Assembly: GCA_002269645.1 (NCBI GenBank) | Contig: NIVC01004420.1 | Location: 1-46,616 of the forward strand | Length of the DNA: 46,616 bases | Source: Macrostomum lignano | Taxonomy: Eukaryota | Direction of reading: 5' to 3' | Part shown: positions 635 to 43,805 of the stretch, one piece after another | Layout: each line of letters starts with the position of its first letter | Numbering within the stretch: the first letter of the stretch is position 1 | Notes under the pieces: generated by a model | Told to the model about the DNA's origin: nothing | The model's database searches: none | What the model saw: the letters and a program-made list of their open reading frames with translations, nothing else | Program-made: the position numbers and the translations under genes

Positions 635-1082
635 ACTACTTAACGCGTGTAAAGTGGTCGATTTTCAGCATATTTGACGCAAAAAACGCAAATTATACTA
701 CTATCTGAAAATGAAGTAAGTAGTATATGAAAACGTGATATATGTACACATAGCATACTTCTATATGTACTTGCATATGTACATTAACCCCGTCTATTCC
801 CAATCCTATATGTACATTGTCTACTTCTATGTCTACATGTAACATTAATCCCTATCTAAATTTCCCCAATGTACCTCTATATGTACACTGCATACTGTAC
901 TTGCATATTTAAACCCATATCTACTTCTAGGACAATTTCTATATGTACAGTGTCACTTCTATATATGTACATTAATTCCCAATCTACACGACAGTCCCCA
1001 GCTGTATTTGAAACCCTCTATACAACAGCAGCCAGTTTATGTAACATTCTCTCTCTCTCTTGGAGTAAACGAAAATTTCCTA
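635..1082 (+). repeat. Left terminal inverted repeat
   Basis: ACTACTTAACGCGTGTAAAGTGGTCGATTTT...GAAAATTTCCTA is the reverse complement of 10485-10938, with scattered mismatches and small indels. Confidence 0.95.
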
Positions 1083-1667
1083 CTCGAAACACCTGTATAC
1101 AGTGTATATTGCAGAGGTGGGGTGCGCTCGCCGGCTGTACAATCCGTTGCATGCGTCATCCCCCAGCCCTCAAGAATGAAAGGCTTCAATGATATGGTTC
1201 GGTACAAACGGCATTGTAAAGAGAAAGGAATATATATTTACAAAATCGATAAAATCAGTAGCATATTACAAGAAATAGATGATGCACAACATTACCAGCC
1301 AATAGAATATACAGAAAATTTACATTGTTTTTCAATAGTCTCCTTTTCATAAATGATTTTAAGCAAGTCTGACATGCAAAATATGTACAATTGCTTTTTA
1401 CATTGGCAATTTTACGCGCATACAAGGCAAAAATGTTTTATGTACCTTTGATGTATAGTTGTTCCTCTTCATAAAATATTTTATGTAAATTTGACATGTA
1501 AAATATGTACAACAAATAGATTTTACTCTGACAAATATACCGCACACAATACAAAATGTTTTGATGTCCATTTATAGTCAGTTTATAACCACAAGGGCCA
1601 GCATTATTTATAGCCATAAGGCCGGCTGCGCACAACCCGCCGCCCGTACACTCGTTTAGTCAGCACG

Positions 1668-2066
1668 CAGGGACTACTCAAACATCGGGACGGGAAACTA
1701 GGCAAATCATGGTGAAGTTATTACGAGGCTGGTTTGTTAGCAGCTGACGAGGCTGGCTGGCTTATTTGTATAGAGCGATACTTTGTTGTCTATGGTTATT
1801 TTCTATTATTTGAAGCTTAATTGTGATAACCGCTATTTCGACTGCAGTCCAGCAGGGGATGCTGGCATTATAGCAGCTAAGTTTCTGGCAGACGAGTAGG
1901 ACAAGCTCGATTTTTCTGCTTGGCATCAATGCCAAGAAAGTGCAGCGTTGTTGCTGCAAGTTATTTATGAGTCCGAACGATTAGCTACGAAACTCGGTTG
2001 AGCGAGAGCGATGGAAAAAGGCCCTACCGAACATCCTGGAGGTAGGCGCTATTTGAGTAGTCCCTG
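1668..2066. mobile_element. hAT-type MITE (399 bp)
   Basis: 15-bp TIR CAGGGACTACTCAAA / TTTGAGTAGTCCCTG with an exact 8-bp TSD TCAGCACG (1660-1667, 2067-2074). Excision restores pPolB ...QRVLT-KRVYG...PYGYK* in frame. Confidence 0.93.
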
Positions 2067-2409
2067 TCAGCACGCGCTGAAACGTCTTGTCCATATTGAT
2101 CGTATGGATGGTACAAGACGTCTTGTCGCGCCTGAACTGAAACTGCGACAGCTGCAGAGAGCCGCCGTGCAGCAGGGCGCTGCGCAGGTCCTCACTGCGC
2201 TCCCAAATCTCTGGCGTCAGGTGAATGCCCTTGCATTTCAGGACCTGGCTCCGGGCACCGGCCGCATCCTCGACAATGTAAGTGTAGAGCTTGGGCCCTC
2301 CACTTACAAAGTCGGTCGTTTGGCTGCCTGCAGGCACCTCGTCGTCCACATTCCGAGGCTCGTGCCATGGGCCGGCTCCCATTGGCCCTCGGAATGGCGG
2401 TAAACGACC

Positions 2410-2504
2410 CTGTGTGTGTGGGTGGGCAATTAGTCAGGTACTAAATCTTATTTACATGTCTATACGTAATCAATTCTAAAAGAATCTATCCAGCCAATAC
2501 TTAC
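2410..2504 (-). other. Spliceosomal intron in pPolB motif C (95 bp, phase 2)
   Basis: GACACCGACTC|GTAAGT...CTGACTAAT...ACACAG|GGTCGTTTAC. Removal gives YCDTDSVVYRHSEGQWEP. Confidence 0.9.
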
Positions 2505-2793
2505 GAGTCGGTGTCGCAATAAATGGCCCGTTCGCCGAGACCCTCCAAGGCCTCGTACAGGCAGGCGCAGTCGGGCCTGCTTGGTCGTAAGGACCCCCGA
2601 TTGGTACGTTGGAGTAGCGGAACGGCCGCTGATTAAAGTAGCGGTGCCGGTACTCCAGCAGCAGCAGCATAAACTCGCTGCCAATCGGCTCGCAGGCCTT
2701 GACCTGGAGTTTCGGATCGGTCAGCCGGGCGAGCCAGTCCTCGTAGCTGGACACAATCTCAGGTCATCGCGCTGACAGAATTTACCCCAGAGC

Positions 2794-2868
2794 CTGTGAA
2801 AATATTGGGTTTGTGCTGCTACTGTTAGTAAAATAAATATTTTAACAAGCAGAATTATGATTACTTTC
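2794..2868 (-). other. Spliceosomal intron in pPolB motif B (75 bp, phase 2, GA donor)
   Basis: AATTC|GAAAGT...TACTAAC...TTTTCACAG|GCTCTGGGGTAAA. Removal gives KIFLNSLWGKF. It has a perfect TACTAAC branch motif, but the donor reads GAAAGT rather than GTAAGT. Confidence 0.82.
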
Positions 2869-3424
2869 GAATTCAAAAAGATTTTCGCCACAAAGCGAAG
2901 TCCTGGGTTGGGCTCGACCCCGTCCAGCTTGACGCCTTCCTTGGAGTAAAAATCGGCAATTTAGGCAGCCCGCTCATCGTCAGTCATGCCGGGGGAGCCG
3001 CTCGACTCGGCCTTCAGCTTGAGAAAGGTGTTGACTCGCTGAACAGGCCGGTCCTCTGCTCTGTCCAGTAGGCTAGCGCGTGCCCGGCTTCCAGACGGTA
3101 GCCCAACTAGAAGGCCTTCCGCAGCTCCGGCGTTGCCCAGGTACCCGTCAGCGCCCGCTCCTGGTCTGAGTGGCTGCAGCACTCGCGGCTGCACTGCTCC
3201 TGCTGCTGCTCCATACAGGTGCGGCAAACCCCAAAAATGAGCTTCTTCTGCACCCTGTATGGCAACAGCGGAATGTGCAGATCTGACGGCGGCAGCACTG
3301 TTACTTCGGCAATGCCAAAGTAGCTGGCCAGCGCGTCAGAGTCGAGTGTCTGCGGCGTCGGGTGGTGCACCGGGTGGCCAATCGGGTACGCGTCTTTTGA
3401 TTGTACCGTCGGGTACAGAGAGAC

Positions 3425-3512
3425 CTGCCAGTTGAAATAAAACAGTATTTCTCATAAACTGTATTTCATATTTTGCAAAATATTCTACTACATTAGTAGT
3501 ATCACTACTCAC
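3425..3512 (-). other. Spliceosomal intron in pPolB motif A (88 bp, phase 0)
   Basis: GATGTG|GTGAGT...CTGGCAG|GTCTCTCTGTACCCG. Removal gives DVVSLYPTVQSKDAYPIGHP. Confidence 0.9.
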
Positions 3513-4728
3513 CACATCCTGATATTTGAGCGCCTCAGTATCACTGGCCATAGCATGCGGGATGAAGCATTCTACTCGACCACCGTAGAGCGCATCCTCC
3601 ATCTTGAGCGGTGCACGCAGATGGGCAGTTGCGGCGATAAAATCAGCCTGCGATGCCAATACAGTGTCATATTCATGCTCCCAAATGACACGAACACTGT
3701 AATTATGCCGCTCCAACTCGCGAGTGAACCGCTCAGTCTCGTGGCGGATGTGGCTCAGAGGCTGCCGCTTTAGTGGGTGGACAACATCCTGGTCGGGCAT
3801 ATACTGCTCGCAGCCATGGTAGAAGCAGCCATGAAACTGCAAAACAATGTTTGTAGCCTCATCGAAGCCTTTCACCTTGCGGCCGAGAATGACAGCCTGA
3901 ACAAATGGTTCAAGCCCATCGCAAATGTCTGCAATTATCGCCCTGTACTTGAGCTACACAGCCCTCGCGAAGCAGGACTGTGTCGCTCAAACAATAATCG
4001 AGATATTCCCGATTAAGGTTGAACAACTCGCCCTGTCGCGAGGCCAACCATGCACAGATGGAGTCGTATTCCTTGTTGGCCTTGCCGCCGTAGTAATCAA
4101 TAGCCGGGTAGGGGCCCACGTAGTTCCAATCGGCCGGCTTGTTGAACTCGTGGGGAAAGGTCCCCTTGGCCAGCTTTGTTGCAAGGCCCAGCGCTTTGGG
4201 AATTGTGCAAGCAGGATTGGCATAAAGTTGAGCGAGTTTTTAAAAACCAACTTGTCAACCGTCATGCACATTAGCCGGCTGCCTTGAAACACCACTTGTG
4301 GCCGCTTCTTGGCCAGGCCGTTGAGTAGAGCGCCGAGCAGCAAAATAGCATCGTAGTCAGATGCATTGTGAGCCGCAACTATGGCGCCGCCTCGGAATGT
4401 TGTGCTCAGCCAGGCGAAAAAATGCATTCAGCGGGCTCGAGCCCACTGCCACAAAGTCGGCCATTTGGCAGGCACAGTCTGAGTGGGTGACGCAATTGGA
4501 GAAATTCTCCCCCAAATCGACATTGACGGTCAGCAACATGTTGTCAGCAGTCAGTTTAGCCGCGACAAAATCATCGGCGTGCAGGTCCGCGCAGAGCACA
4601 GAAATTATTCCATCAAACGTTCAAACGCTCGAATATCAACCATATCTGCTGTGAGCGATACTGCATACTTGTAGTCTTTTGCCTTAAATTTAGGCAGAGC
4701 CTTTGCCCCGCAAGGCGCGCAATGAAGC

Positions 4729-4810
4729 CTGAAAAATTGGAGCGCTTGAAATTAGAATTGCAAGCGGCGGCGGCGGGTGAATGACTCATGAAATAAAATC
4801 AACTCCTTAC
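4729..4810 (-). other. Candidate fourth intron upstream of the pPolB exonuclease domain
   Basis: GTAAGG donor, TTCTAAT branch-like motif and TTTTTCAG acceptor, 82 bp. The flanking protein could not be recognised, so splicing is not validated by motif restoration. Confidence 0.4.
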
Positions 4811-4899
4811 CGTTGCCTTCGACAGTGTCGGGCTGGGGCGGGGGTGGAAATTTAGCCAAATCTGCAATTAAAATGTGCATGGTGACTAAAATTCTGACC

Positions 4900-7800
4900 G
4901 ATGGAGGGCAATTGTCTCAGTCGCCGCCTGACATCTTTCAGCGGCCGGGTCTGAGCACCGCGTGGCTTTGTGTAGGTCCGTGGCAATGGTGACCTCTTCT
5001 GGGAAGGGGGTCCACGGAGGCAGGGGTGCCGGTAGTTCTTGTGGAGTCAGCTGTCCGACTGCAAGGTTGGTCAGCCACTGGCCGATCCTCTGGAAGCACG
5101 GTTTGAAAGAAAGAGCCAGGACGTCTTCGTCAACGGGGTCCGCTTTCGGATCGGTTTCACTCTTGAGGAGAGCTTCATGAGCCCTGCAGCGGAGGCGGGC
5201 TTGACGGGCGGCGGGCGGGGTCCCCGGTCGGGAGGAGGTTCAGCCTGGTGTATTCTCTAGCAGCCTGATCCAGCGCTCTGAGGAATAGGGCAGGTAGGCC
5301 AGCCTCCGCAAGCAGGGTCCGCCTGTTAGTGATTCCAAGGGCAGCCCGTGATAATGCGGGCGCATTTGTTCTGTTCGGCTTCCAGCTTGTAGCGGTTCGT
5401 GGGGGCCGCGTGGGTGAACTAGATCGAGGAGCCATAGTCCAAGATGGAGCGTATGTAGGCGGTGTAGGCGGTTCGGAGGGTAGTTCTATCAGTTCCGAAG
5501 TGTTTGCCTGCGATGGCCAGCAAGCAGTTGCGTCGATTAGCCATCCTAGTTTTGACCAAATCGACGTGTCTGGAGAAAGTCAACTGGTCATCGAATTTGA
5601 GGCCCAGCCCAAGAAGGTGGATTCAGCTTCGTAACGCAGGGGCTCATTTTCGATGCAGAACCCCTTAGCGCACTTTGCCGCCACATTCCGCGGGATTGAG
5701 AGTGAAGGTGGTGAAGCTGCACTTGTGAGTGCTCAATTGGACTTTCCAGCGTTTAGTCCAACAAACAATGGCATCGAGGGCCGGCTGGGCGCAATCCGTG
5801 CACTCTTGCAGGCTACGGCCAGTGGTCAGTATTGCCGTGTCATCCGCGAAGAGAGATCGATGCACCCTATCGTCGAGGCCGTCGTCGATGTCGTTAACGT
5901 AGATCAGCCAGAGGAGGGGTGCGAGAACTGATCCTTGAGGGAGGCCGTCCGTAAAGACTCTCCAGTTGGAGCAGATGCCGTCCCAGCGGACTCTGGCGCG
6001 GCGATCAGAGAGGAGGTTCTTGACGAAGCGGATGACATGGGCCGGGATGCCGAGTCTGGCCATTTTATCATACAAGCCGGGTCGCCAGATTCGGTCGTTT
6101 TATTTTTTTATTAGAGGCAGGGGGGTTGTGTGCACCCTGGCGCACTTTAAGCGACATAGGCACACAACCGGCGAGAGGCATTACTACCCATTCCGCCGAC
6201 TCCCCTGAGCAGGCATACAAGCGCGCGGATACGTACGCAGGCACACAAGCACACAGGAGTGTACAGCGGCCCTAACTTTATATTATCGTTAGGCATGTGC
6301 ACTTCACTGCGCCTTGGGGGGTTGGCTCTCAAGGCCGTTAATTGCACGAGCAGAGCCAAGCCGAGATTCCAATTCAGCCCCAAATTAATGTGACTGCACT
6401 TGGAATCGAGCCTGGGTCGCTGGCACACCAGAGCAGCTGCGCTATCGCTGGGCTACGGCCCCCCTTAGATTCGGTCCTAGGCCTTGGCAAAGTCCAGGAG
6501 GATCAGGATAGCGCGCTCAGACTTGCCTTGCTCGAGGGCGTCAAAGATGGCCTGGGTGATACGGGCCAGTTAGTCGATCGTTGAGTGGCCTTTGCGGAAA
6601 CCGGCCTGGTTTTTGTTAAACAGGTTGCGCGATTCAAGCCAGTGGAAAAGGCGGTTCTGGAGGATGAGCTCGGCCAATTTGGCAATGCAGCTGAGAAGCA
6701 AAATGGGCCTGAAGAGTCAGTCTGCCCAGGGTCTTTCCCTTTCTTATGGATAGCGATGATTTCGGCACGCCTCCAAGCGGCAAGGATGGTGCGGTTTAAC
6801 CAGCAGTCGTTGAGGAGTTCGAGGAGGCGGCTTTTTCCCCGAGGGGAGGCTTGACGAAGGAGTTCATTGCTCGGGGCTTTCCCGTTTTTGAGCTGCTTGG
6901 TGGCCAGCTCCGGTTCGGTGTTGGTGATCGGGCTACAGATGTCGGAGCGGGTGCCGTCGCAGGTGCAGTTCAAGACTGCGCGGCGCACCTCTTGGATGAT
7001 GGGGCGGTCCTCAGCCTTATTTTTTCCAATTCTGGAGACCTCGGCATAGGCTCTGCAGAAGAGCTCCGCTTTCGCTCGGGCTGTGGCCGCGAGTGGATTC
7101 GATGGATAAATGTTGCCGCTGGCCGGACGTTCGAAGGCTGCGGCGGGCTTAGAGCTGGGTATGCGCCCATCGAAGCGTTTTATCAGCCTCCACATATCAC
7201 CATGGCTCTCGGAAATCAAGCTTCTTTTCCTCCTGGATGACACGGGCGGCCTCTTGTTTTAAGTCGGAGTACCGGCGGATGCTTTCAGGGTCATCGGGGC
7301 TCTCGATCAGGGAGAGGCGACTTTCTTCCCGGCGGTCCGCAGCTTTCTGGCAGCGTTCATTCCAGAAGGGCTGTCGCTTTCTGGGGCCGTTGCCGAAGGG
7401 GATGGCCTAGCGGGCCGCACCGGTGAGGGCGCTGGTGATCAGTTGATTACGGCGATCGGCGGAACAGCACGCCGAATTCAGTAGGTTTTTGATTCTAGCC
7501 AGCCTGGAGTCAAGGTCAACCCGGAAGGCCTGCCAGTCAGCCTTTTTGAAGTTGAACCGGCTGGGAGATTTCGGCTTCACAGGGTCGTTGGCGTCGAGAT
7601 TTACCAGCATCGGCAGGTGGTCAGAGCCGATACCCTCAAGGGTGCACCAGTCGGCGCGGCTGGCCAGGTCGGCTGTGACGATGCATAGGTCAGGAGCTGA
7701 TTTCCCCCCTGTAGCCGGATTAAGGTGGGTGTGGCCTCCGTCGATGAGTATCGACAGGCAGCAGTTAGTAGTCCACTCTTCAATCGCAGTACCTAGCTGG

Positions 7801-8940
7801 TCCTCCCTCTGGAAAGGGTCCCAGCAGGTGGCATGCGCGTTAAGGTCTCCTGCGATAAGCGTGCGAGGGCCGAGGATGAACCCATCTGGGTTGAAGGTGG
7901 CCTCGATGTCCTCACGGGTGCTGCGGCGAGCCGGTGGAACATAGGTGTTTATGACTCGGATTGGTTTAGCGCCCGCGAGAAAGATTTGGGTGCCATGGCA
8001 GAGCAAGTGTGATCGTTGGGTTGCCTATGGGCCGACTGTAGTCTTTTGAATGCGGTGTCATCTCTAACCAGGGTGAGGATCCCGCCTTGGTTTGCTTCAG
8101 CGGGGCCGTTCGTCTCGTCCGGGCAGTAGTCGTTTCGTCCGCTGATGTTGTAGCCGGCAAAGGAGGGGCCGTAGATTTAGGGCGGAGGAAAGTCTCTTGG
8201 AGCATAACGACGTGGGGGCGCTTGTCGGCGATGAGTTTGGCGAGTTCTGTGGCGCGTTTCTTGAGGCCGTTGCAGTTTAGGATAAGGGCAATCACCGGGG
8301 ATTTGCGCCTTCGGGTCCGCACTTCCGGCTCCGGGGGCGGATCCATTAGGGCGGGCGTACCGGTGTTAGCCTGGGAGCGCTACCGTCTTTGGCGGCCGTG
8401 CTGGAGGCCGTGCCGCTCGTTTGAAGTTGTTTCACGTCGTGGCACGCCGTGCGGAGCCTTTCGGCAGGTCTGTAGCCGCCAGATTGTCGTGGCGAATTTA
8501 GCACCGGCGTACTGGTAGGTGTCGGTTTGGCTGGCGGCGGCGCATTGTCAGTCTTGTTTCGGCAGGGTTGGCATTCCCAAGGGGTGCCAGAGACAGAAAA
8601 GTGGCGAAGTGCTTTAGGCTGATGTCAGTGCACCTTCTGTGGTTCCAGGTGCGGCACCTCGCACATTGTATCGAACAGTCGGCTCCATAGCCGAAGTTCT
8701 TTCTACAGGCTCCACACGGGAACCTGGGTCCCGGGTTGGCTTCGATGTCGCCAGCAAGGAGCAGAAATGTTGTAAACCAGCTCAGGAGGTGCGACCATGT
8801 TCTTCGATTCTTGGGCATCGACGACAGTCTTCTGGGGACGCGCAACCTCCCTTCGCGACCGGTTTGACAGGTCACGGTCAGTTGCGCAGTGTGAGTGAGA
8901 CCGGAACAATTGGCGCGGGTTTCCTCGCGACGCCACCCCT
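4900..8940 (-). mobile_element. Non-LTR retrotransposon (Ingi/Vingi- or I-group-like): 2A peptide, PHD finger, APE, RT; frameshifted, 3' end missing
   Basis: ATG at 8818; LLLAGDIEANPGP (8749-8726); C4HC3 PHD. APE motifs LNCNGL, MLQET, AGDLNAH, PDL, GSDHLP. RT motifs QAGFR, LLDFAKA*DRIW, GLPQGSVLAPLL, LFADD. A PPW connector at ~5000 follows, but no RNase H and no poly(A) or repeat tail. Boundaries are approximate. Confidence 0.88.
6097..6466 (-). mobile_element. tRNA-derived SINE inserted in the LINE RT
   Basis: Head GGGGCCGTAGCCCAGCG (A-box-like)...GGCTCGATTCC (B-box-like), A-rich tail, and exact 10-bp TSD AGATTCGGTC (6087-6096, 6467-6476). Removal rejoins DRIW-RPGLYDKM. Confidence 0.92.
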
Positions 8941-30913: not shown

Positions 30914-33900
30914 AAGACAGACGGACAGACAGACAGACAGGCAGACAGACAGACAGACAGACAGACAGGCAGGGTCAGTATGCCAGCCTGTCACTTTTTA
31001 ATAAAAAGCTCCGCATCAGAGCAAGACCAAACAAATGATGGCTGGGACAGGCAGGTCGGGGGAGGGCCGCAGCTACCTTCCGCTTGATCGTGAGGTTGCT
31101 CTCGGTGGAGGCAGGCATGGCCGTGTAAGCCGGCTTCCTCGACGCGGGCGCATTCGGCGAGGCGCCGCGCGAGCCGCGGTTGCTGCCGCTGCCGCTGCCG
31201 GGGCCGGAGCGGCGCTCCAGCAGGGTGCCGGACTCGGGATCCAGGTCGTGACTGCGCAACGGTTTGCCCAGCAACACGTCGCGCATGTAGGGCTGCTGCG
31301 CCAGGTAGGCATCATCGTCCGGATCGGCAGATTCACCGGGTGCAGCGGCTCCCGGCCTGGCCTGCTGCTGCTGCTGGTACTGCTGCTGGTAGGGCTGCTC
31401 AGCCGGATGCTTCGCCTGACCGCCAGGAGCTCCCGGCGCACTGGCGTAGCCTGGCGCCCGCCTAGCGCTGGCCATCTCATCCGATGGCTGGCCCGTCTGG
31501 CGCGTAGCATTTATATTGGATAAATATACTTGAAAAATTCTTAACAACACTACTTACTAGATTGAAAGAAGTAGAAAAGTAAGCTCATGTCTAGAAAAAT
31601 CCGAAAAACAACATTGAAAGAAAAAATAGCGCAGACGAGGGATTGAGAAATCGTCGTCTTACCAGCATATCGGGCGGCGGTGGCGGCAAAAAGTCCGGCG
31701 GCATGTCATCTGGACCGGCTGACAGCTGCTGGTCTCTGCCGGGGCCGTAGCGCGATCCCGAGCCGGGGCCTCCTTGGGTGCCTGCTGGACCTCCATAGCC
31801 GCCGGGACCTCCTTGGGTGCCTGCTGGACCTCCATAGCCGCCAGGACCTCCTTGGGTGCCTGCTGGACCTCCATAGCCGCCAGGACCTCCTTGGGTGCCT
31901 GCTGGACCTCCATAGCCGCCAGGACCTCCTTGGGTGCCTGCTGGACCTCCATAGCCGCCAGGACCTGGGCCGCCGGCTCGGCTAGGCGAAGCGGTCTGAC
32001 CGCTGACGCTGCTAAACTGCGGCTGCTGCTGCTGGTCGCCGCTGCTGCCGGGGGCGCAGTACGGCTTCGGGCCCAGCTGGGAGGCCATGCCGCCCCCTGG
32101 GCCGCCGCGCGGCGAATTGCGGCCGCCGCCTGCGGCTGGCGCAGACATGTTCGCGCCAGATTGTGGCGCCGGAGCACCGGAACCAGAGTGACCACCGTAG
32201 CGATAGGGGTCGCCTTGCACAGTCTGCGAGAGTTCGGGTTTGGAATGAATACAGTTTGAGGCTTTAGCGGCAGCTAAGAAAGAGCGCGCCAAAGTCTGGT
32301 AACAGAACGGCGGTTTTGGCATTTGTGCACTCAGCGAGACACTAGGTGGCGCCGAGCTACACATTTAGTGGCGCCGAACTATTGATAGATATTTAGTGGC
32401 GCCAATCGAACTGTAGAAAAGAACCAAATACAATATCAAGTGCATACGAGTGTAACAAGTGTAAACAATACGAGCCGTGTAAATGAACACCGCGTACTTT
32501 TCAATCTAAACAATAACCCATACGGACCCATAGGTCATAAGCCATGTTTATGCCAGAGGCTTCAATCATTAAGTGAATGGCATTGCGTCAAACTTCCACA
32601 TCATATGGGAACTGGTCGTGTCTACCGCACAGCCCCTTTATGGAATTAACCGGAGTGGAATTCAACCATAGGAAAACTATTCAAGGCCGTCCCAGATCCC
32701 CGCACACGCAGGCACGAATGATGGAATTCCAAAAATGGAAATCTGCAGTGCGGATTGCCGAGCAAAACTGACCAAAATCTGTCCTGGCTTCAGCTGACTG
32801 CACTTAGCTTTCAACCTTCCATTTTCATTTTTCCGATCCAGATGCTTCATATATTTTGGAAATCCATGGATTTGTCACATAGACAGACTTATTTAGAGGC
32901 TAAGCTAGTCATAATTTACTACCAAATACGCTATTTCAGTGCACATTTTTACTAAGCTATATGCATATTTCTATACACTTTTATGCTACGTAGAGTAACT
33001 TAGCAAATATGGTAAGGTCGCAGTGGTGGGTCCCTTAGCGTCACCCGATGGGGGTGAGAGTGCATGGGTTACGCATGCATTACAAATACAGTGAGACTTC
33101 ATTTCACTTAACAAGCAACCAATAAGCGTTTAGTCGGAAAAGGAATGAGGGAGAACTAAGTTAGACTTTCTCGTCACACGTATAACAACTATACGCACAC
33201 GCAGCTGGCTAAACACAGTTTTCTATGCATAAAAAAACGCTCGCCTCGATTCGGGACACGCCACGAATAGCGAACCATTTTTGCGAATTTTTTTTCCAAC
33301 TGGAGGGCAGATGTCCTACAGAGCTATACACAAGACAGCAAAATTGGCTAACAAATATTCTAAATCTGCAAGGTTTTTGCGCAGCACTATTTCTAATTAT
33401 CTGGAGAGTGGGAGCTCTTTGTTAGTGTAAAAAATTCTCGCTTTTGCGCCAGCCATAGCAACGGCTTCCTGGTTCCTGTCCTGTCTGTCTTTGTGTCTGC
33501 GCCTGTGTCTATGTTTGCGTCTTTTTGTCTATTCCTGTGTCTGTCTGTGTCTTCGTGTCTGTTTCTGTCTTTGTGCCTATGCCTGTCTTTGTGTCTGTTT
33601 CTGTGTCTTTGTGCTTACGCCTGTCTTTGTGTCTGTTTCTGTGTCTTTGTGCTTACGCCTGTCTTTGTGTCTGTTTCTGTGTCTTTGTGCTTACGCCTGT
33701 CTTTGTGTCTGTTTCTGTGTCTTTGTGCTTACGCCTGTCTTTGTGTCTGTTTCTGTGTCTTTGTGCTTACGCCTGTCTTTGTGTCTGTTTCTGTGTCTTT
33801 GTGCTTACGCCTGTCTTTGTGTCTGTTTCTGTGTCTTTGTGCTTACGCCTGTCTTTGTGTCTGTTTCTGTGTCTTTGTGCTTACGCCTGTCTTTGTGTCT

Positions 33901-36900
33901 GTTTCTGTGTCTTTGTGCTTACGCCTGTCTTTGTGTCTGTTTCTGTGTCTTTGTGCTTACGCCTGTCTTTATGTCTGTTTCTGTGTCTTTGTGCTTACGC
34001 CTGTCTTTGTGTCTGTTTCTGTGTCTTTGTGCTTACGCCTGTCTTTGTGTCTGTTTCTGTGTCTTTGTGCTTACGCCTGTCTTTTTGTCTATTCCTGTGT
34101 CTGTCTGTGTCTTCGTGTCTGTTTCTGTCTTTGTGCCTATGCCTGTCTTTGTGTCTGTTTCTGTGTCTTTGTGCTTACGCCTGTCTTTGTGTCTGTGCTT
34201 ACACCTGTCTTTGTGTCTTCCTGTGTCTGTCTGTGTCTTCGCGTCTGTTTCTGTGTATTTGTGCCTATGCCTGTCTTTGTGTCTGTTTCTGTGTATTTGT
34301 GCCTATGCCTGTCTTTGTGTCTGTTTCTGTGTCTTTGTGCTTACGCCTGTCTTTGTGTCTGTGCTTACACCTGTCTTTGTGTCTTCCTGTGTCTGTCTGT
34401 GTCTTCGCGTCTGTTTCTGTGTATTTGTGCCTATGCCTGTCTTTGTGTCTGTTTCTGTGTATTTGTGCCTATGCCTGTCTTTGTGTCTGTTTCTGTGTCT
34501 TTGTGCTTACGCCTGTCTTTGTGTCTGTTTCTGTGTCTTTGTGCTTACGCCTGTCTTTGTGTCTGTTTCTGTGTCTTTGTGCTTACGCCTGTCTTTGTGT
34601 CTGTTTCTGTGTCTTTGTGCTTACGCCTGTCTTTGTGTCTGTTTCTGTGTCTTTGTGCTTACGCCTGTCTTTGTGTCTGTTTCTGTGTCTTTGTGCTTAC
34701 GCCTGTCTTTGTGTCTGTTTCTGTGTCTTTGTGCTTACGCCTGTCTTTGTGTCTGTTTCTGTGTCTTTGTGCTTACGCCTGTCTTTGTGTCTGTTTCTGT
34801 GTCTTTGTGCTTACGCCTGTCTTCGTGTCTGTTTCTGTCTTTGTGCCTATGCCTGTCTTTGTGTCTGTTTCTGTGTCTTTGTGCTTACGCCTGTCTTTGT
34901 GTCTGTGCTTACACCTGTCTTTGTGTCTTCCTGTGTCTGTCTGTGTCTTCGCGTCTGTTTCTGTGTATTTGTGCCTATGCCTGTCTTTGTGTCTGTTTCT
35001 GTGTCTTTGTGCTTACGCCTGTCTTTGTGTCTGTGCTTACACCTGTCTTTGTGTCTTCCTGTGTCTGTCTGTGTCTTCGTGTCTGTTTCTGTCTTTGTGC
35101 CTATGCCTGTCTTTGTGTCTGTTTCTGTGTCTTTGTGCTTACGCCTGTCTTTGTGTCTGTTTCTGTGTCTTTGTGCTTACGCCTGTCTTTGTGTCTGTTT
35201 CTGTGTCTTTGTGCTTACGCCTGTCTTTGTGTCTGTTTCTGTGTCTTTGTGCTTACGCCTGTCTTTGTGTCTGTTTCTGTGTCTTTGTGCTTACGCCTGT
35301 CTTTGTGTCTGTTTCTGTGTCTTTGTGCTTACGCCTGTCTTTGTGTCTGTTTCTGTGTCTTTGTGCTTACGCCTGTCTTTGTGTCTGTTTCTGTGTCTTT
35401 GTGCTTACGCCTGTCTTTATGTCTGTTTCTGTGTCTTTGTGCTTACGCCTGTCTTTGTGTCTATTCCTGTGTCTGTCTGTGTCTTCGTGTCTGTTTCTGT
35501 CTTTGTGCCTATGCCTGTCTTTGTGTCTGTTTCTGTGTCTTTGTGCTTACGCCTGTCTTTGTGTCTGTGCTTACACCTGTCTTTGTGTCTTCCTGTGTCT
35601 GTCTGTGTCTTCGCGTCTGTTTCTGTGTATTTGTGCCTATGCCTGTCTTTGTGTCTGTTTCTGTGTATTTGTGCCTATGCCTGTCTTTGTGTCTGTTTCT
35701 GTGTCTTTGTGCTTACGCCTGTCTTTGTGTCTGTGCTTACACCTGTCTTTGTGTCTTCCTGTGTCTGTCTGTGTCTTCGCGTCTGTTTCTGTGTATTTGT
35801 GCCTATGCCTGTCTTTGTGTCTGTTTCTGTGTATTTGTGCCTATGCCTGTCTTTGTGTCTGTTTCTGTGTCTTTGTGCTTATGCCTGTCTTTGTGTCTGT
35901 TTCTGTGTATTTGTGCCTATGCCTGTCTTTGTGTCTGTTTCTGTGTCTTTGTGCGTATGCCTATCTTTGTGTCTGTTTCTGTGTCTTTGTGCTTACGCCT
36001 GTCTTTGTGTCTGTTTCTGTGTCTTTGTGCTTACGCCTGTCTTTGTGTCTGTTTCTGTGTCTTTGTGCTTACGCCTGTCTTTGTGTCTGTTTCTGTGTCT
36101 TTGTGCTTACGCCTGTCTTTGTGTCTGTTTCTGTGTCTTTGTGCTTACGCCTGTCTTTGTGTCTGTTTCTGTGTCTTTGTGCTTACGCCTGTCTTTGTGT
36201 CTGTTTCTGTGTCTTTGTGCTTACGCCTGTCTTTGTGTCTGTTTCTGTGTCTTTGTGCTTACGCCTGTCTTTGTGCCTGTTTCTGTGTCTTTGTGCTTAC
36301 GCCTGTCTTTATGTCTGTTTCTGTGTCTTTGTGCTTACGCCTGTCTTTATGTCTGTTTCTGTGTCTTTGTGCTTACGCCTGTCTTTGTGCCTGTTTCTGT
36401 GTCTTTGTGCTTACGCCTGTCTTTGTGTCTGTTTCTGTGTCTTTGTGCTTACGCCTGTCTTTGTGTCTGTTTCTGTGTCTTTGTGCTTACGCCTGTCTTT
36501 ATGTCTGTTTCTGTGTCTTTGTGCTTACGCCTGTCTTTGTGTCTATTCCTGTGTCTGTCTGTGTCTTCGTGTCTGTTTCTGTCTTTGTGCCTATGCCTGT
36601 CTTTGTGTCTGTTTCTGTGTCTTTGTGCTTACGCCTGTCTTTGTGTCTGTTTCTGTGTCTTTGTGCCTATGCCTGTCTTTGTGTCTGTTTCTGTGTCTTT
36701 GTGCTTACGCCTGTCTTTGTGTCTGTGCTTACACCTGTCTTTGTGTCTTCCTGTGTCTGTCTGTGTCTTCGCGTCTGTTTCTGTGTATTTGTGCCTATGC
36801 CTGTCTTTGTGTCTGTTTCTGTGTATTTGTGCCTATGCCTGTCTTTGTGTCTGTTTCTGTGTCTTTGTGCTTACGCCTGTCTTTGTGTCTGTTTCTGTGT

Positions 36901-39900
36901 CTTTGTGCTTACGCCTGTCTTTGTGTCTGTTTCTGTGTCTTTGTGCTTACGCCTGTCTTTGTGTCTGTTTCTGTGTCTTTGTGCTTACGCCTGTCTTTGT
37001 GTCTGTTTCTGTGTCTTTGTGCTTACGCCTGTCTTTGTGTCTGTTTCTGTGTCTTTGTGCTTACGCCTGTCTTTGTGTCTGTTTCTGTGTCTTTGTGCTT
37101 ACGCCTGTCTTTGTGTCTGTTTCTGTGTCTTTGTGCTTACGCCTGTCTTTATGTCTGTTTCTGTGTCTTTGTGCTTATGCCTGTCTTTGTGTCTGTTTCT
37201 GTGTCTTTGTGCTTACGCCTGTCTTTGTGTCTATTCCTGTGTCTGTCTGTGTCTTTGTGTCTGTTTCTGTGTCTTTGTGCCTATGCCTGTCTTTGTGTCT
37301 GTTTCTGTGTCTTTGTGCTTACGCCTGTCTTTGTGTCTGTGCTTACACCTGTCTTTGTGTCTTCCTGTGTCTGTCTGTGTCTTCGCGTCTGTTTCTGTGT
37401 ATTTGTGCCTATGCCTGTCTTTGTGTCTGTTTCTGTGTCTTTGTGCGTATGCCTATCTTTGTGTCTGTTTCTGTGTCTACGGTACATGTGTCTGCGCCTG
37501 TTTCTATATATGTGTCTTTTTGCCTGTCTGTGTCATGTCTGTCTGTGTCTGTCTCTGTGTCTGTCTATGCCAGTGCCTGCATGTGTGTCTATATCTGTGT
37601 CTGCCTGTTTGCCTGCCTGCCAGTCTCAATAGGTTTGCGCAATGCCATCCAAATGTCCACCGGAAGCAACAGCATACATAGCTTGTACGAGTATGTATTT
37701 GATGCGCGCTACTGATGCGACAATCTAAAAAGCTAGGGTAACTTTTTCTACATGCAAACTCTCTCTACTGTACTGTACGTACAGATCTGCTGACCAAAGA
37801 GTGCTGTAAAGGCAGGCATCAGTTGAATTGGCCTAATCCAAGCCGGGTAAAAAGTCAACAGTTATTAACAGAGTAAATATTGTATCAAAATTATTTCGCA
37901 AAACAGAGCTAGCGCGGTCAGAGTTACCTGAAATCTATCCAAGCTCCAGCCTTTGTAGCCTTGCTAATTCATGATGCTTAGATTGAATTTAACAGAGCTT
38001 TGAAAGTCGGCTGCGGTGCAGACAGGACCGGCAAGCATTTAACACACACATTTTCACGCGGCCCAGGCGTGCTGTTTTGTAAACTTATTTGCCAACAGCA
38101 GCAGACTTAAAAAGTCAAGATAAGGCCAAGCTTGATTTCTGTACACTGGATTCTATTTTGCTTAATTAACTACTGATAAGAATGGTTCAGCTAATTGAGC
38201 TGGGTGCGGTTATAACACAAATAACTGATAACAGTGCGTACAGAAAATTCATGTTAATTATTTTATCCAACTCAATCTTACCTTGGCAGTAGTGCTAGGA
38301 ATGTACTGTTGCTGCTGTCTGTGCGGCTGCTGCTGCTGACCCTGCGGCATGGACATCTGGCCGCCCTGAAGGTTGAGCTTGTGAAACTCGGGCTGGAAAA
38401 GTGCATAACACACGCATAAGGCTTGCAATACATATGCCACAAAACAGTTCAAGCCGCAGAGTGAAGGTTCTGATATTTACAAGTTAGAAAAATAAACAAA
38501 AAACAAGCTCTGCTAGACACAATCGAGGGGCTGGCTGGAATGGCATTACCGCAATAGGAATGGCCAGAGGGCACTCGCACTGGGTGGGTCTGCCTGCCCA
38601 GGACTACTATAGAGAAAGACAATCTGGATTGGGAAACGACTTGCGAGTCTCGAGTGGGTTCCCAACTTTTGACTGCCACAATTTGACTGTCACAATTCGA
38701 GTTTCACGATCTGACTGTCACAATTCGAGTTTCTCGATCTGACTGTCACAATTCGAGTTTCACGATCTGACTGTCACAATTCGAGTTTCACGATCTGACT
38801 GTCACAATTTGAGTTTCTCGATCTGACTGTCACAGTTTGATTGTCACAATTCGAGTGGCACAATTTGACTGTCACGATTTGTGTGCTACGATCTGACTGC
38901 CGCAATTTGACTGTCACAATTTGACTGTCACAATTCGAGTGTAACAATTTGAGTGTCACAACCTGACTCTTAAAATTTGACTGTCTCAATTTGACTGCCA
39001 CAGTTTGACTGCCACAATTCGCGTGTCACAGTTTAATTGTCACAATCTGACTGTCACAACTTTGTATTATAGGGGATCGTTTGTAAATTTGAAGTATGAA
39101 ATAGGACAAAATTTGCTTTACTTTACGACTACAGAATACGCAGAAGTTAATAACTAAAGGAGTGTCAGTTAGAGCTCTGTCTCTTTCCCAGATTATTCCG
39201 TCTTGAGCTTGGCATTCATGGTGTCTGCCTTGTCTGTCTGTGCGCTGCACAGCCAGTGTCTTTCATTCTCGCATTTATTTACCTATAGATAGCATGCCAT
39301 GAACTGTATGAGTACTGAGCTCGCGGCCTCTATTAAACTCCATCATCATAGCTGCCTCATAATGCTAGCAACTCACTAATGCTGAGTCCTTTTTCTTTGC
39401 CGTTGTCTCTCTGTGTTTAAGATACAATACTCTATTAAGAGACTCTTTTACTCAAATTTATGCAAATATTAAGCATTAAAATTAATTCTTTGACATTTAA
39501 GATAGGATGAATCGCTAGGGCTAGCAGTCTAGTGGTTAGAGCGATTCTGGACCCACTTGGAACAATTTGTGTCCTTGATCAAGACACCCAACTCTGCATT
39601 GCTTCGGTTCACCCAGCTAAAAATGGGTGCCAGCATTAGCTGGGGTAACTGAGGGTGTGTGGCGACCCCCCAGCCCTTGGACTGAACAGCCGTACGCAGC
39701 CTTCAGATGCGCCGCGCAAATAGCTGCGGCTGAGCTGTCGGTTGCACATCTGCCAACTAGTTTCAATGTACGCTTTCGCGACAGGCGCCTCTCACCTCGG
39801 TATCCGTGTACGGCGCAGGCAGGTCGCCAAGAGGCGCAATCTCATAATTATAATTGTACATCTCTCTTGGCGGGGTTGTGCCAGCGAACTGGTTGCCACC

Positions 39901-42900
39901 AACGTAGCCAGGCGGGGCCTCGTAGTGCAGCAGGTACTGGCACATGTGGGTGAACGTGTCCCCGTCCGCCGGCTCGTTGGCGTACACCTCCAGGCCGAAC
40001 TCGCCTGCAGGTAAAAACATTAACAATAGAAATGAATGAATTTTGTCAGGCTCAAAGCTTTTGTGAGCTCAACTCTCAAGTCTGTGGAGTTGGGGACTCA
40101 AGCAACAGAGATTTTCGACTCTGTTCACGTTGCACGTTGTGGTTGTGGTGTGGGAGGCTAAAGTTAAGATAAATGCAGCCCTAGTCAATTTTTCCTAATG
40201 TACAATAAATAAGTGCGACAAGGCAAGCAGTCAAGCGCGCAGACACACGCTCACGCGGGGTGTACAGCGGTCCCGACTTTCATATCGTCAGTCACCAAGG
40301 GCCAAGCCCACCGCTAAATAATCACTCACCAGGCTCCGGCAAGGTGATCTGGAAGGTGGACTGGTTCGGAGCCTCGAACTGCTTGTTATACTGGTCCAGC
40401 GCATTCTCGGCGTAGTTGTTGTGCCGCAGCTTGGCCAGCAGGTTCACCTCCGGCCGGGACTTGCGGAAGTACAGCTGAACTTGGCCATTGACGGAGCTCA
40501 CTACGCCATCCTTGTGCGACGGGGCCAGGCCGTACTTCTCCACGTGGATGCCGGGGCCCCAGTTGCAGTCGTGGCAGGTTGGAAACGGCGTAGCGTCCGC
40601 GGCGGCCTCCTCGCAGTTGATTCTGTACTCGCAGGCGGCCCGGTAGGTGTTCTCAACTCCGATGTGCCCAGTGACCTCCTGGGCGTACACGGTCAGGTAA
40701 TAGTGACCCGACATCGGCATGCGGAAGTAGAACTGGATCTGGTTGAACGTGGTCTCTTGGAGCACGAACGATTTCAGCTCCGTGCCACGGAACCTGTGGG
40801 TGGATTAGGGGGGATGAATGAGACCCTGATCCCTGCATTCTAGATCCCTGCATTCTAGATCTCTGCATTCTAGATCTCTGCATTCTAGATCCCTGCATTC
40901 TAGATCTCTGCATTCTAGATCCCTGCATTCTAGATCTCTGAATTCTAGATCCCTGCATTCTAGATCTCTGCATTCTAGATCCCTGCATTCTAGATCCCTG
41001 CATTCTAGATCTCTGCATTCTAGATCCCTGCATTCTAGATCCCTGCATTCTAGATCCCTGCATTCTAGATCTCTGCATTCTAGATCTCTGCATTCTAGAT
41101 CCCTGCATTCTAGATCCCTGCATTCTAGATCCCTGCATTCTAGATCTCTGCATTATAGATCTCTGCATTATAGATCCCTGCATTCTAGATCCCTGCATTC
41201 TAGATCCCTGCATTCTAGATCTCTGCATTATAGATCTCTGCATTATAGATCTCTGCATTCTAGATCTCTGAATTCTAGATCCCTGCATTCTAGATCTCTG
41301 CATTCTAGATCCCTGCATTCTAGATCTCTGCTTTCTAGATCTCTGCATTCTAGATCCCTGCATTCTAGATCCCTGCATTCTAGATCCCTGCATTCTAGAT
41401 CTCTGCATTCTAGATCCCTGCATTCTAGATCCCTGCATTCTATATCCCTGCATTCTAGATCTCTGCATTCTAGATCTCTGCATTATAGATCTCTGCATTA
41501 TAGATCTCTGCATTATAGACCTCTGCATTATAGATCTCTGCATTCTAGATCTCTGCATTCTAGATCCCTGCATTCTAGATCTCTGCATTCTAGATCCCTG
41601 CATTCTAGATCCCTGCATTCTAGATCCCTGTATTCTAGATCTCTGCATTATAGATCTCTGCATTATAGATCTCTGCATTCTAGATCCCTGCATTCTAGAT
41701 CCCTGCATTCTAGATCTCTGCATTCTAGATCTCTGCATTCTAGATCTCTGCATTCTAGATCCCTGCATTCTAGATCTCTGCATTATAGATCCCTGCATTC
41801 TAGATCTCTGCATTCTAGATCTCTGCATTCTAGATCCCTGCATTCTAGATCTCTGAATTCTAGATCCCTGCATTCTAGATCTCTGCATTCTAGATCCCTG
41901 CATTCTAGATCCCTGCATTATAGATCTCTGCATTATAGATCTCTGCATTCTAGATCTCTGCATTATAGATCTCTGCATTCTAGATCCCTGCATTCTAGAT
42001 CCCTGCATTCTAGATCTCTGAATTCTAGATCCCTGCATTCTAGATCTCTGCATTCTAGATCCCTGCATTCTAGATCTCTGCATTCTAGATCTCTGCATTC
42101 TAGATCCCTGCATTCTAGATCTCTGCATTCTAGATCCCTGCATTCTAGATCTCTGCATTCTAGATCCCTGCATTCTAGATCCCTGCATTCTAGATCTCTG
42201 CATTCTAGATCCCTGCATTCTAGATCCCTGCATTCTAGATCTCTGCATTATAGATCTCTGCATTATAGATCTCTGCCCTGCATTCTAGATTCCGGATTAA
42301 AAGGGAGGCCTGACCCCTGCATTCCGGATTAGAAGGGAGGCCTGATCCCAGCATTCCGGATTAGAAGGGAGGCCTGATCCCTGCATTCCGGATTAGAAGG
42401 GAGGCCTGATCCCTGCATTCCGGATTAGAAGGGAGGCCTGATCCCTGCATTCCGGATTAGAAGGGAGGCCTGATCCCTGCATTCCGGATTAGAAGGGAGG
42501 CCTGATCCCAGCATTCCGGATTAGAAGGGAGGCCTGATCCCAGCATTCCGGATTAGAAGGGAGGCCTGATCCCTGCATTCCGGATTAGAAGGGAGGCCTG
42601 ATCCCTGCATTCCGGATTAAAAGGGAGGCCTGACCCCTGCATTCCGGATTAGAAGGGAGGCCTGATCCCTGCATTCCGGATTAGAAGGGAGGCCTGATCC
42701 CAGCATTCCGGATTAGAAGGGAGGCCTGATCCCAGCATTCCGGATTAGAAGGGAGGCCTGATCCCTGCATTCCGGATTAGAAGGGAGGCCTGATCCCTGC
42801 ATTCCGGATTAGAAGGGAGGGGAGGCCTAATCCCCTTCATGGATAAGACAATCCAGAAATTTTTACAGACAATTTCTTGCTGGCAAAGGTTTGAGTATCT

Positions 42901-43805
42901 GCATGATGGGCTAAGGATTAAAAGAAGTCAAGACAAAACCCGGATCCGCAGGCACACCTGTCAATCAGTTCTTCTCCATAGTGCAGCTTAAACGTGAATG
43001 ACGCCCTCTTGCCGTAGCCCAGCGCCATCTGCAGCTTGCCCTGCTTGGTCCAGACCACGCCGTGAGTCGCCTGCTCAAACGACATGCCGCACTTGAAGAA
43101 ATGCGATTTAGTCAATGGCAAATCTTCGAATTGTTCAAGCGTTAGCGGCTGACGCAGCAGCTGCCACCGGGGATCCTCGGGATAGTGGCTGTACACGGCC
43201 TGCTGCGGCTCCATCATAAAATAGAAATCGTCGTATTCGTACACGAGATTCTCTGGCGAGTTGTTCTCCGAGCTCAGGTAGCGCATCGCCCAGTGCGCGT
43301 CCACCAGCTGCCAGGCGCCGTCAATTTTGATGACATTCCAAGAATGATTGTGCGCCTGGTTGCGGAACACGCAGCCGGGCCGGTACTCCACGCCTTTGGC
43401 GTAGCCGGACACGGTGACGCAGTTGAGCTGGGCGAAGCTGCACAGCAGCTCGTAGATCCTGGCGAATGTACCCCGCTTATAGTTGGATAAGAACGCTTCT
43501 GGCGAGCCTTTCTCAGCCTGGGCGAACTGGATATTCTTCATGTCTTTGGAGGTCATCCAGCGGAAGATGACGCGAGCTCGCTCGAGCTCGGTGAGGCGCA
43601 CCCGGTACACCAGGTCCCACATCAGGTCGCGAAAGGTCGGATGCTCGCGTCGGCTCACCTCGATGGCGTGCTCGTCAATTTTGGCGAACACCTTGGGATC
43701 ATCGTAGACTTGATGCTTGAGAAAATGTGGGGGTTTTGGGTCAGGACTGCGGTCAATGACCTGCTGGCCAAGGTTAAACGCGTCCGGTGCCCTGTGCCAG
43801 TTCAT
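25167..43805 (-). CDS. Hillarin/KY-like protein with two transglutaminase-like modules (~1,690 aa); exons 43805-42958, 40793-40330, 40004-39796, 38392-38282, 32223-31663, 31496-31077, 30187-30112, 30024-29983, 29788-29523, 29222-28833, 28135-27818, 27225-26836, 26363-26073, 25838-25167
   Basis: Two sets of motifs (GYAKG.EY.PG, HSWN, WQLVD.HWA, YE.D.FYF, H.P....WQLL), each followed by beta-rich repeats (GLE.YAN, .CEYR.). All 13 GT-AG junctions are phase-compatible as traced. The donors at 31076 and 27817, the acceptor at 27226 and the 5' start are less certain, and more 5' exons may exist. Confidence 0.85.
25862..26065. repeat. (GACT)n microsatellite, intronic
   Basis: Direct reading. Confidence 0.95.
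26445..26770. repeat. 31/28-bp tandem repeat, intronic
   Basis: GGGAGATGGGATTTGAGGACACCAGAGCACT and a 28-bp variant. Confidence 0.9.
27407..27716 (+). mobile_element. tRNA-headed SINE (second family), copy 1, antisense in an intron
   Basis: A-box-like TAGTCTAGTGG, B-box-like GAGTTCGATTC, central CCAGCTGTAAAATGGG block reminiscent of CORE-type SINEs, and an (ATT)n tail. Near-identical body at 39517-39756. Confidence 0.85.
28190..28800. repeat. Degenerate ~22-23-bp tandem repeat, intronic
   Basis: GGGATTTCTGAATAGGGGAT(C/G)TT variants. Confidence 0.9.
29815..29942. repeat. ~39-bp tandem repeat, about 3 copies, intronic
   Basis: GGGATTCTTCCCAAA...ATATTCACTGGATT units. Confidence 0.85.
30703..30970. 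repeat. (GACA)n microsatellite, intronic
   Basis: Direct reading. Confidence 0.95.
31766..31968 (-). repeat. Coding 39-bp tandem repeat x5 ([13 protein letters not shown])
   Basis: Lies inside exon 32223-31663 and preserves the frame. Confidence 0.9.
33480..37625. repeat. 4.1-kb 38-bp satellite with higher-order variant cassettes, intronic
   Basis: GTGTCTGTTTCTGTGTCTTTGTGCTTACGCCTGTCTTT, about 100 units; the plus strand is extremely A-poor. Confidence 0.97.
38670..39060. repeat. Degenerate 28-bp tandem repeat, intronic
   Basis: GACTGTCACAATTCGAGTTTCACGATCT, decaying to a GACTGTCACAATTT core. Confidence 0.85.
39517..39756 (+). mobile_element. tRNA-headed SINE, copy 2 (31-nt deletion in the head, tail absent)
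   Basis: Aligns with 27407-27675 except that 27434-27464 is missing. Confidence 0.85.
40826..42285. repeat. 15-bp tandem repeat, about 96 copies, intronic
   Basis: TAGATC(C/T)CTGCATT(C/A). Confidence 0.97.
42290..42830. repeat. 32-bp tandem repeat, about 16 copies, intronic
   Basis: GATTAGAAGGGAGGCCTGATCCCTGCATTCCG; no spacers between units. Confidence 0.95.

Follow-up and report, generated by a model that had tools for sequence, protein, structure and literature searches.

The window analysed here, a stretch of 46,616 nt from Macrostomum lignano (contig NIVC01004420.1, in a genome of 764 Mb), carries on its minus strand a gene encoding a protein-primed family B polymerase (pPolB). This gene houses the introns of the locus, and its nearest database proteins are labelled M. 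lignano (81-98% identical). The locus raises the question of why introns interrupt the catalytic motifs of a polymerase, motifs to which we assume that the letters A, B and C apply. An earlier note, made from the sequence, had placed one intron in each of these motifs and had suggested that the placement may be non-random. The features of the locus are listed below (slashes mark intron positions).

635..10938, minus strand: Polinton/Maverick-type element, polymerase-only, decayed copy of 10.3 kb with ends 5'-ACTAC...GTAGT-3'
635..1082, strand not given: terminal inverted repeat, downstream end, 94% to 10485-10939
2065..2409, minus strand: last pPolB exon, aligned part (spliced alignment)
2410..2504, minus strand: intron C, 95 nt, phase 2, DTDS/VV, inside motif C
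2505..2793, minus strand: pPolB exon, motif B to motif C (spliced alignment)
2794..2868, minus strand: intron B, 75 nt, phase 2, LNS/LWG, within motif B; this copy has a non-canonical donor
2869..3424, minus strand: pPolB exon, motif A to motif B (PF03175, E=2e-4)
3425..3512, minus strand: intron A, 88 nt, phase 0, DV/VSLYP, inside polymerase motif A
3513..4728, minus strand: pPolB coding DNA (N-terminal piece, exonuclease, Vsr-like domain), with frameshifts
3810..3836, minus strand: core motif of the predicted Vsr-like nuclease domain inside pPolB (profile matches E. coli Vsr, E=1.5e-5)
4729..4810, minus strand: 82-nt intron N1, phase 1, outside the catalytic motifs and close to the N-terminus of the polymerase
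4901..8968, minus strand: inserted LINE-like retroelement with endonuclease and reverse transcriptase pieces, boundaries approximate, a gap in comparison with sister copies
10485..10938, strand not given: terminal inverted repeat, upstream end, about 450 bp, pairing with 635-1082

The element containing this gene is of the Polinton/Maverick type. It encodes a protein-primed PolB and has terminal inverted repeats, and target duplications of 6 bp, within the 5-8 bp of this class, were seen in 6/6 sisters with paired ends from the same family (family 1), the duplication not being intact in the window copy. Its pPolB has OTU-like, exonuclease, Vsr-like and polymerase domains, the domain set described for the OTU and PF03175 pPolB of Polintons/Mavericks (Alpha adintoviruses) and for the Vsr-insert pPolB2 subgroup (PMC8502044, PMC10748475). 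Intact vertebrate Mavericks are described as free of introns (PMC8097293), while pPolB here bears five spliceosomal introns, and the element has no integrase, ATPase or capsid gene. No profile match to integrase was found in 15 element stretches, and none to ATPase or capsid in these stretches with small profiles (10 and 4 sequences; protease was not profiled). Only pPolB is common to the two families of the element found in this genome. The element is a polymerase-only derivative and not a complete Polinton. Since target duplications are present while integrase, ATPase and capsid are unmatched, integration is likely supplied in trans. A search covering family-2 ends found no partner element with integrase and capsid among 15 stretches with such ends, which comprised polymerase copies, non-coding derivatives and unrelated insertions.

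The window copy itself is decayed. Its pPolB carries 7 frameshifts and 2 stops, and has lost about 1.2 kb at 4519, together with an intron named N2, and about 180 bp at 3897. The LINE-like insertion contains RVT_1 (5665-6099) and Exo_endo_phos_2 (7407-8024) domains. Several further observations were made on the elements and on the window. Both families (window 635-10938; L121-L127, L081-L114) are polymerase-only, and 6-bp target duplications were seen for family 1 and for two derivatives with family-2 ends. L313 (C1090:36590-47900) has family-2 ends, inverted arms of 3.8 kb and a truncated polymerase, and is a rearranged derivative; L315, L316 and L327 are also rearranged derivatives with family-2 ends, largely palindromic and devoid of polymerase. 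At L322 (C1597), an ARF-like host gene encloses a transposon-like ORF cluster and a short element whose ends are family-2-like. Elsewhere in the window, the minus-strand stretches 40653-42284 and 42918-43841 hold a frame of pentapeptide repeats and an exon for a KY-like immunoglobulin domain, and positions 33397-37715 form a low-complexity repeat of 4.3 kb with extreme AT skew, open in three frames.

By their ends, A, B and C are real spliceosomal introns. They show U2-type ends (GT-AG, with a GTRAGT donor and a pyrimidine-rich acceptor) that are conserved across copies, the B donor of the window copy being non-canonical. Among the 30 best family-1 loci, the window's included, intron A has a GT donor in 30/30 and an AG acceptor in 27/30, intron B in 25/30 and 29/30, and intron C in 28/30 and 30/30, respectively. 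The exceptions at the B donor are GA in the window copy and in 3 near-identical copies, and GC in one. The lengths of the three introns vary among these loci while the ends are kept in most, and their GC content is about 0.28-0.36, compared with about 0.54 in 1-kb windows of the gene. Indications of splicing were taken from contigs of runs presumed to be RNA, all from one study and bearing the letters of sister copies. Intron C was skipped exactly in contigs of 4/4 such runs, intron B in 1/4 (X4) and N1 (4810-4729) in 2/4 (X2, X3). In a further look, C was skipped in 3/3 presumed-RNA runs and unskipped in run X6. Among the matches listed from these contigs, no splice joint was seen for A or N2; the public gene model P0001 joins N1, N2, A and B.

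The location of three introns inside motifs A, B and C was thus borne out, with ends kept in most sisters and the same positions in family 2. The word "validated", used for them in the earlier note, does not suit the window copy, given its frameshifts, stops and B donor. The note had also seen no other intron, except for a weaker upstream candidate. That candidate is real (N1), and a fifth intron is present in full-length sisters: N2 lies in the OTU-like region, in a stretch deleted from the window copy. The unbiased list for the gene is therefore five introns (N1, N2, A, B and C), of which N1 and N2 break the frame upstream of the other three. A sixth intron is possible at the extreme 5' end, where there is an acceptor-like site.

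As a separate observation, the start of intron A (window 3495-3509, minus strand) consists of the terminal hexamers of the element joined tail to head, forming a 6-bp hairpin over the donor in 26/30 family-1 loci. The folding of intron A was not clearly below that of shuffles, and an origin of the intron from the end of the element was rejected, as the whole-intron alignment was not significant.

The introns are fixed in two element families. In a DNA search, 40 of 70 candidates were scored and yielded 41 matches. Family 2 has about 62% amino-acid identity to family 1 (uncorrected pN/pS, 0.22/0.85), and in its copies A, B and C occupy the same positions and phases as in family 1 in 30/30, 30/30 and 29/29 covered cases. 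N2, which lies in a variable region, has been kept since the family split like A, B and C, and so has N1 in the copies inspected. No exact intron loss was found among the family copies examined (30 of family 2, and 30 plus 14 overlapping stretches of family 1). Introns of the two families measure 65-341 nt. The same genome contains an intron-free, degraded pPolB relative (L115, about 31% identity). Another pPolB family was noted at L103 (C1704), with a frame of 1478 codons flanked by dUTPase and deoxynucleoside kinase genes. Family 2 also has two more ORFs of about 166 and 360 codons (L081:3271-3768, minus strand; L086:6874-7953, plus strand) with no convincing Pfam match, and none was obtained for 34 other ORFs from one element of each family. 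The database fragments P0121 and P0122, from outside this genome (68% and 59% identical), coincide exactly with the exon that introns A and B enclose, which suggests that related species have the same two introns.

Is this placement non-random? Three of the five introns lie in the strict motifs A, B and C (p=4.6e-5 for an approximate gene length of 1250 codons). With a smooth conservation score, the result for the four introns of the gene that could be aligned was p=0.013-0.017. The earlier note had warned that introns are easiest to notice where they break a motif, and had named splice-aware alignment as the test that could refute its view by adding many introns in variable regions. Such an alignment added only two. 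As a control, 260 introns were planted, and 52/61, 59/69, 53/61 and 60/69 of them were recovered from the lowest to the highest conservation quartile (85-87%). This flat recovery shows that ascertainment bias is not the explanation. In the genes for host Pol alpha, delta and zeta, with which the note had proposed a comparison, 0/9 catalytic motifs were split, though introns occur nearby in these genes. The intron positions were therefore not copied from the host, and none is shared with the cellular polymerases.

To survey relatives outside this genome, a purpose-written spliced profile aligner was run on 87 pPolB loci, consisting of the best 80 of 510 metagenome loci, from a scan that required one exonuclease motif intact, and 7 of 32 viral loci. 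A call was kept as an intron if it broke the frame and had a GC content at least 5 points below that of the exons. Of the 69 calls of the aligner, 44 were rejected (39 open in-frame inserts and 5 frame-breaking inserts without low GC). The survey gave 21 intron calls in 14/87 loci, corresponding to 17 distinct sites, and 73/87 loci had no intron. No intron was found in the remaining 25/32 viral loci, scanned separately and mostly giving short matches, and a viral scan run with one protein found nothing. Many of these outside relatives adjoin integrase, ATPase and capsid genes. No frame-breaking intron was present in alignments of integrase (39), ATPase (32) and capsid (6), made with profiles from intron-free ORFs of the same loci. 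Of 3278 integrase candidates in the M. lignano genome, the 127 matches that were scored covered nearly the full length and had no large gaps.

The 17 outside sites had a mean conservation of 0.64 versus 0.48 (p=1.2e-4), and the difference held under nulls matched for flanking bases (p=7e-4 and 8e-5). It also held when 11 rejected calls were counted as real (p=0.002). Four of the 17 lie in the strict motifs A, B and C (p=2e-4). When the four focal sites were added, 15/21 sites were in the top conservation quartile, and 6/21, plus N1, were outside of it. Among the top-quartile sites, 7/15 fell in the strict motifs, compared with 6.9% expected (p=3e-5; 4/12 for the outside sites only, p=0.007). 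Catalytic motifs are thus preferred to conserved motifs of other kinds. The 21 sites were also clustered, with 16 close pairs versus 4.3 (p=4e-4). Sites in motif A occupy profile columns 791, 796 and 797, those in motif B columns 971, 973, 980, 982 and 983 (about 36 nt, in three phases) and those in motif C columns 1075 and 1076. Four sites (columns 683, 688 twice and 693) make the Vsr-like motif the fourth hot spot, although its core is unsplit in the window copy. The hot spots coincide with DNA-conservation peaks ranked 2, 3, 4, 6 and 13. These results demonstrate that intron placement in Polinton polymerases is non-random, as the earlier note had thought possible, and recurrent.

A tree of 82 rows (8/90 were dropped for coverage), weak at its deep nodes, distributed the intron-bearing loci over about ten scattered groups with intron-free sisters, and the loci L205 and L206, 75% identical, had no intron site in common. 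From these comparisons, the motif introns of distant relatives were apparently gained independently. Further indications came from 56 short database fragments, 6/62 having been left out as labelled with the host species. Seventeen of the 56 had their end inside the 8-column motif B (p=1.7e-8 against the mean rate and 1.7e-4 against the densest other stretch, for a query that itself ends at motif B and may favour such ends), and several of these carried donor-like read-through tails. Several fragments began in motif A behind acceptor-like heads. These fragments suggest that the B site of the window recurs in distant proteins.

The introns fit none of three mobile classes, PolB inteins, shintrons and introners. 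The earlier note had given offsets of 5 codons for A and 2 nt for B from the pol-a and pol-b intein sites, which we take to be SLYP/S and N/S. Introns A, B and C are AT-rich GT-AG inserts of 75-95 nt and not PolB intein alleles (pol-a, pol-b or pol-c), and no intein-sized insert was present at A, B or C in the 87 outside loci. Intron C lies 8 nt from the pol-c site, as the note had stated, a distance that fits the YGD/TDS position given for that intein (PMC549080). The 21 outside calls are 48-357 nt long and contain no nuclease-sized ORF. With no intron-encoded nuclease ORF and no intron above 357 nt, they are not homing introns of the shintron kind. Introners were rejected as well, since 300 pairwise comparisons of intron sequences gave short matches only (best score 28), with no significant match to the element ends or to the contig of origin. 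The idea of the note that the introns derive from inteins or homing elements was not supported, because positions differ between lineages, the introns are short, ORF-free and unrelated, and no intein-sized insert lies at the motifs in the 87 loci.

It is established that the introns exist, that they are fixed in two families and that they cluster in motifs over scattered lineages, and the observation of the earlier note holds with two more introns than it had counted. As for the mechanism, we infer, tentatively, that the motif introns may have spread by breaking the DNA site that a rival, site-specific nuclease would cut, while leaving the protein unchanged. Homing-type nucleases of Polintons and co-infecting viruses would cut motif DNA that is impossible to recode. 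A rare spliceable insertion anywhere in the recognition site, perhaps made during the repair of such a cut, would then give immunity. Immune genomes would sweep, possibly aided by copying of the intron into cut genomes, as in the collaborative homing described in PMC2988022, and the intron would stay because its imprecise loss in a motif would be lethal. The broader form of this proposal, which we hold more loosely still, is that plain ORF-free spliceosomal introns could act as anti-nuclease armour of animal Polintons, repeatedly gained in pPolB catalytic motifs by destroying homing-type nuclease targets. This would amount to a spliceosomal version of collaborative homing and to a new way of gaining introns, driven by selection.

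Target disruption is favoured by the several positions within a short window, by their location on DNA-conservation peaks and by the use of the same motifs by known homing elements; several positions per motif fit it better than a single homing site. Protection from motif-targeting elements, one of the possibilities raised in the earlier note, is thus the best-fitting mechanism, still unproven. Genes of the GIY-YIG and HNH types have been described from Polinton-like viruses (PMC12220804), and five free-standing viral ORFs (L290, L296, L297, L299 and L301) have a C-terminal Vsr-like domain related to that of pPolB and repeated N-terminal modules, with DUF723 in the two that were scanned. No nuclease cutting these motif sites was identified, and the sole nuclease-like part in the elements is the predicted Vsr-like domain within pPolB. 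No word of 4-6 letters spanning the junctions was clearly depleted from the element (one 6-mer was weakly so), which does not support a short restriction-type site. Dips of synonymous diversity near the introns were noisy, and were not clear in family 2, and no clear sign of a sweep by gene conversion emerged around the introns.

Retention offers a different account, in which intron gain is random, introns of tolerant regions are shed from compact virus-like genomes by imprecise deletion, and those in motifs persist because they need exact loss. Such a retention ratchet makes a nuclease unnecessary and agrees with the concentration of sites in the top conservation quartile and with the lack of exact loss among the family copies examined; we regard it as possible but doubtful. 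It explains conserved sites, but not the excess in catalytic motifs, because 18/25 of the strongest protein-conservation peaks (one forced intact by the search pattern) have no intron. On a noisy measure, moreover, columns free of indels hold only 1/21 sites, compared with 8% expected, and six further blocks without indels hold none. N2 has persisted in its variable region for the same time as A, B and C, and N1 has done so too in the copies that were inspected. It is improbable that the introns are degenerate spliceosomal homing introns, which once encoded nucleases, homed to the motifs and lost their ORF. Spliceosomal introns with HNH, GIY-YIG, VSR-like and PD-(D/E)XK nucleases do exist in mirusviruses (PMC12768974), and the sites are near classic homing sites (PMC549080). 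However, neither the ORF-free outside calls nor the family introns of 65-341 nt retain such a gene, their sequences share short matches only, and homing alleles keep one exact site, in contrast to the several per motif found here.

Improbable as well is one ancestral intron per motif that slid by a few bases and was lost exactly in most lineages, or a context bias of intron gain that tracks the motifs. Some sites indeed differ by only 1-5 nt, the base before the intron is G in 16/21 and the base after it in 17/21, and the window's B site seems to recur in the fragments of distant proteins. Yet the signal survives the context-matched nulls, the 73/87 intron-free loci would need many exact losses, the B sites are too spread for sliding (about 36 nt, three phases), and why the ancestor's introns were in motifs would stay unexplained. 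A regulatory switch, with motif introns tying polymerase activity to nuclear splicing, is very unlikely. Intron A is in frame and stop-free in 13/30 family-1 loci and unusually conserved in family 1 (p-distance 0.047 versus 0.055-0.084 for exons), but this low variability is absent in family 2 (0.186). The earlier note had likewise suggested that all catalytic residues might be made dependent on splicing. Motif placement is unneeded for this, since the frame-breaking introns N1 and N2 upstream already impose splicing. Least credible of all is chance or ascertainment bias: numbers within this one gene are small and the smooth conservation score gave only p=0.013-0.017, but planted introns were recovered alike in all quartiles and the signal outlasted the addition of the rejected calls.

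Compared with known systems, these introns resemble classic homing elements in their insertion into catalytic motifs of an essential replication gene, and differ from them as GT-AG introns with neither nuclease nor ribozyme, 8 nt from pol-c for intron C and at several positions per motif. They are similar to mirusvirus shintrons (PMC12768974) in being spliceosomal, in core genes of a nuclear DNA virus and about 80 nt in typical length, except that shintrons encode nucleases, and MING-1 introns occupy one exact site in that description, while the introns here have no ORF. The logic proposed for target disruption, with an intron that lacks an ORF interrupting the target of a nuclease at a conserved coding position, is that of collaborative homing between nuclease-less group I introns and free-standing endonucleases in phages (PMC2988022, PMC11296320); that process is known there for self-splicing phage introns, and no partner nuclease was found here. 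Host-type introns in viral genes also include the spliceosomal intron of the chlorovirus DNA polymerase (PMC7019647) and the introners of dinoflagellate Polinton-like viruses (PMC12166617). Unlike introners, the introns here form no sequence family, and no motif targeting is described in the available text of either source (PMC7019647, PMC12166617). A search of the literature outside Repbase and subscription journals found no report of motif-clustered spliceosomal introns in Polinton polymerases.

According to one description, spliceosomal introns do not favour conserved sites, in which they differ from inteins and group I introns (PMC2814812); according to another, vertebrate Mavericks that are intact have no introns (PMC8097293). 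As far as these two descriptions go, both rules fail in one gene family. Polinton screens based on ORFs or on motifs will miss these lineages, or call them broken, because the marker motifs are the very parts that are split. The repeated apparent gains in the same few motifs can be counted, and offer a way to ask what fixes new introns, nuclease conflict or a loss ratchet.
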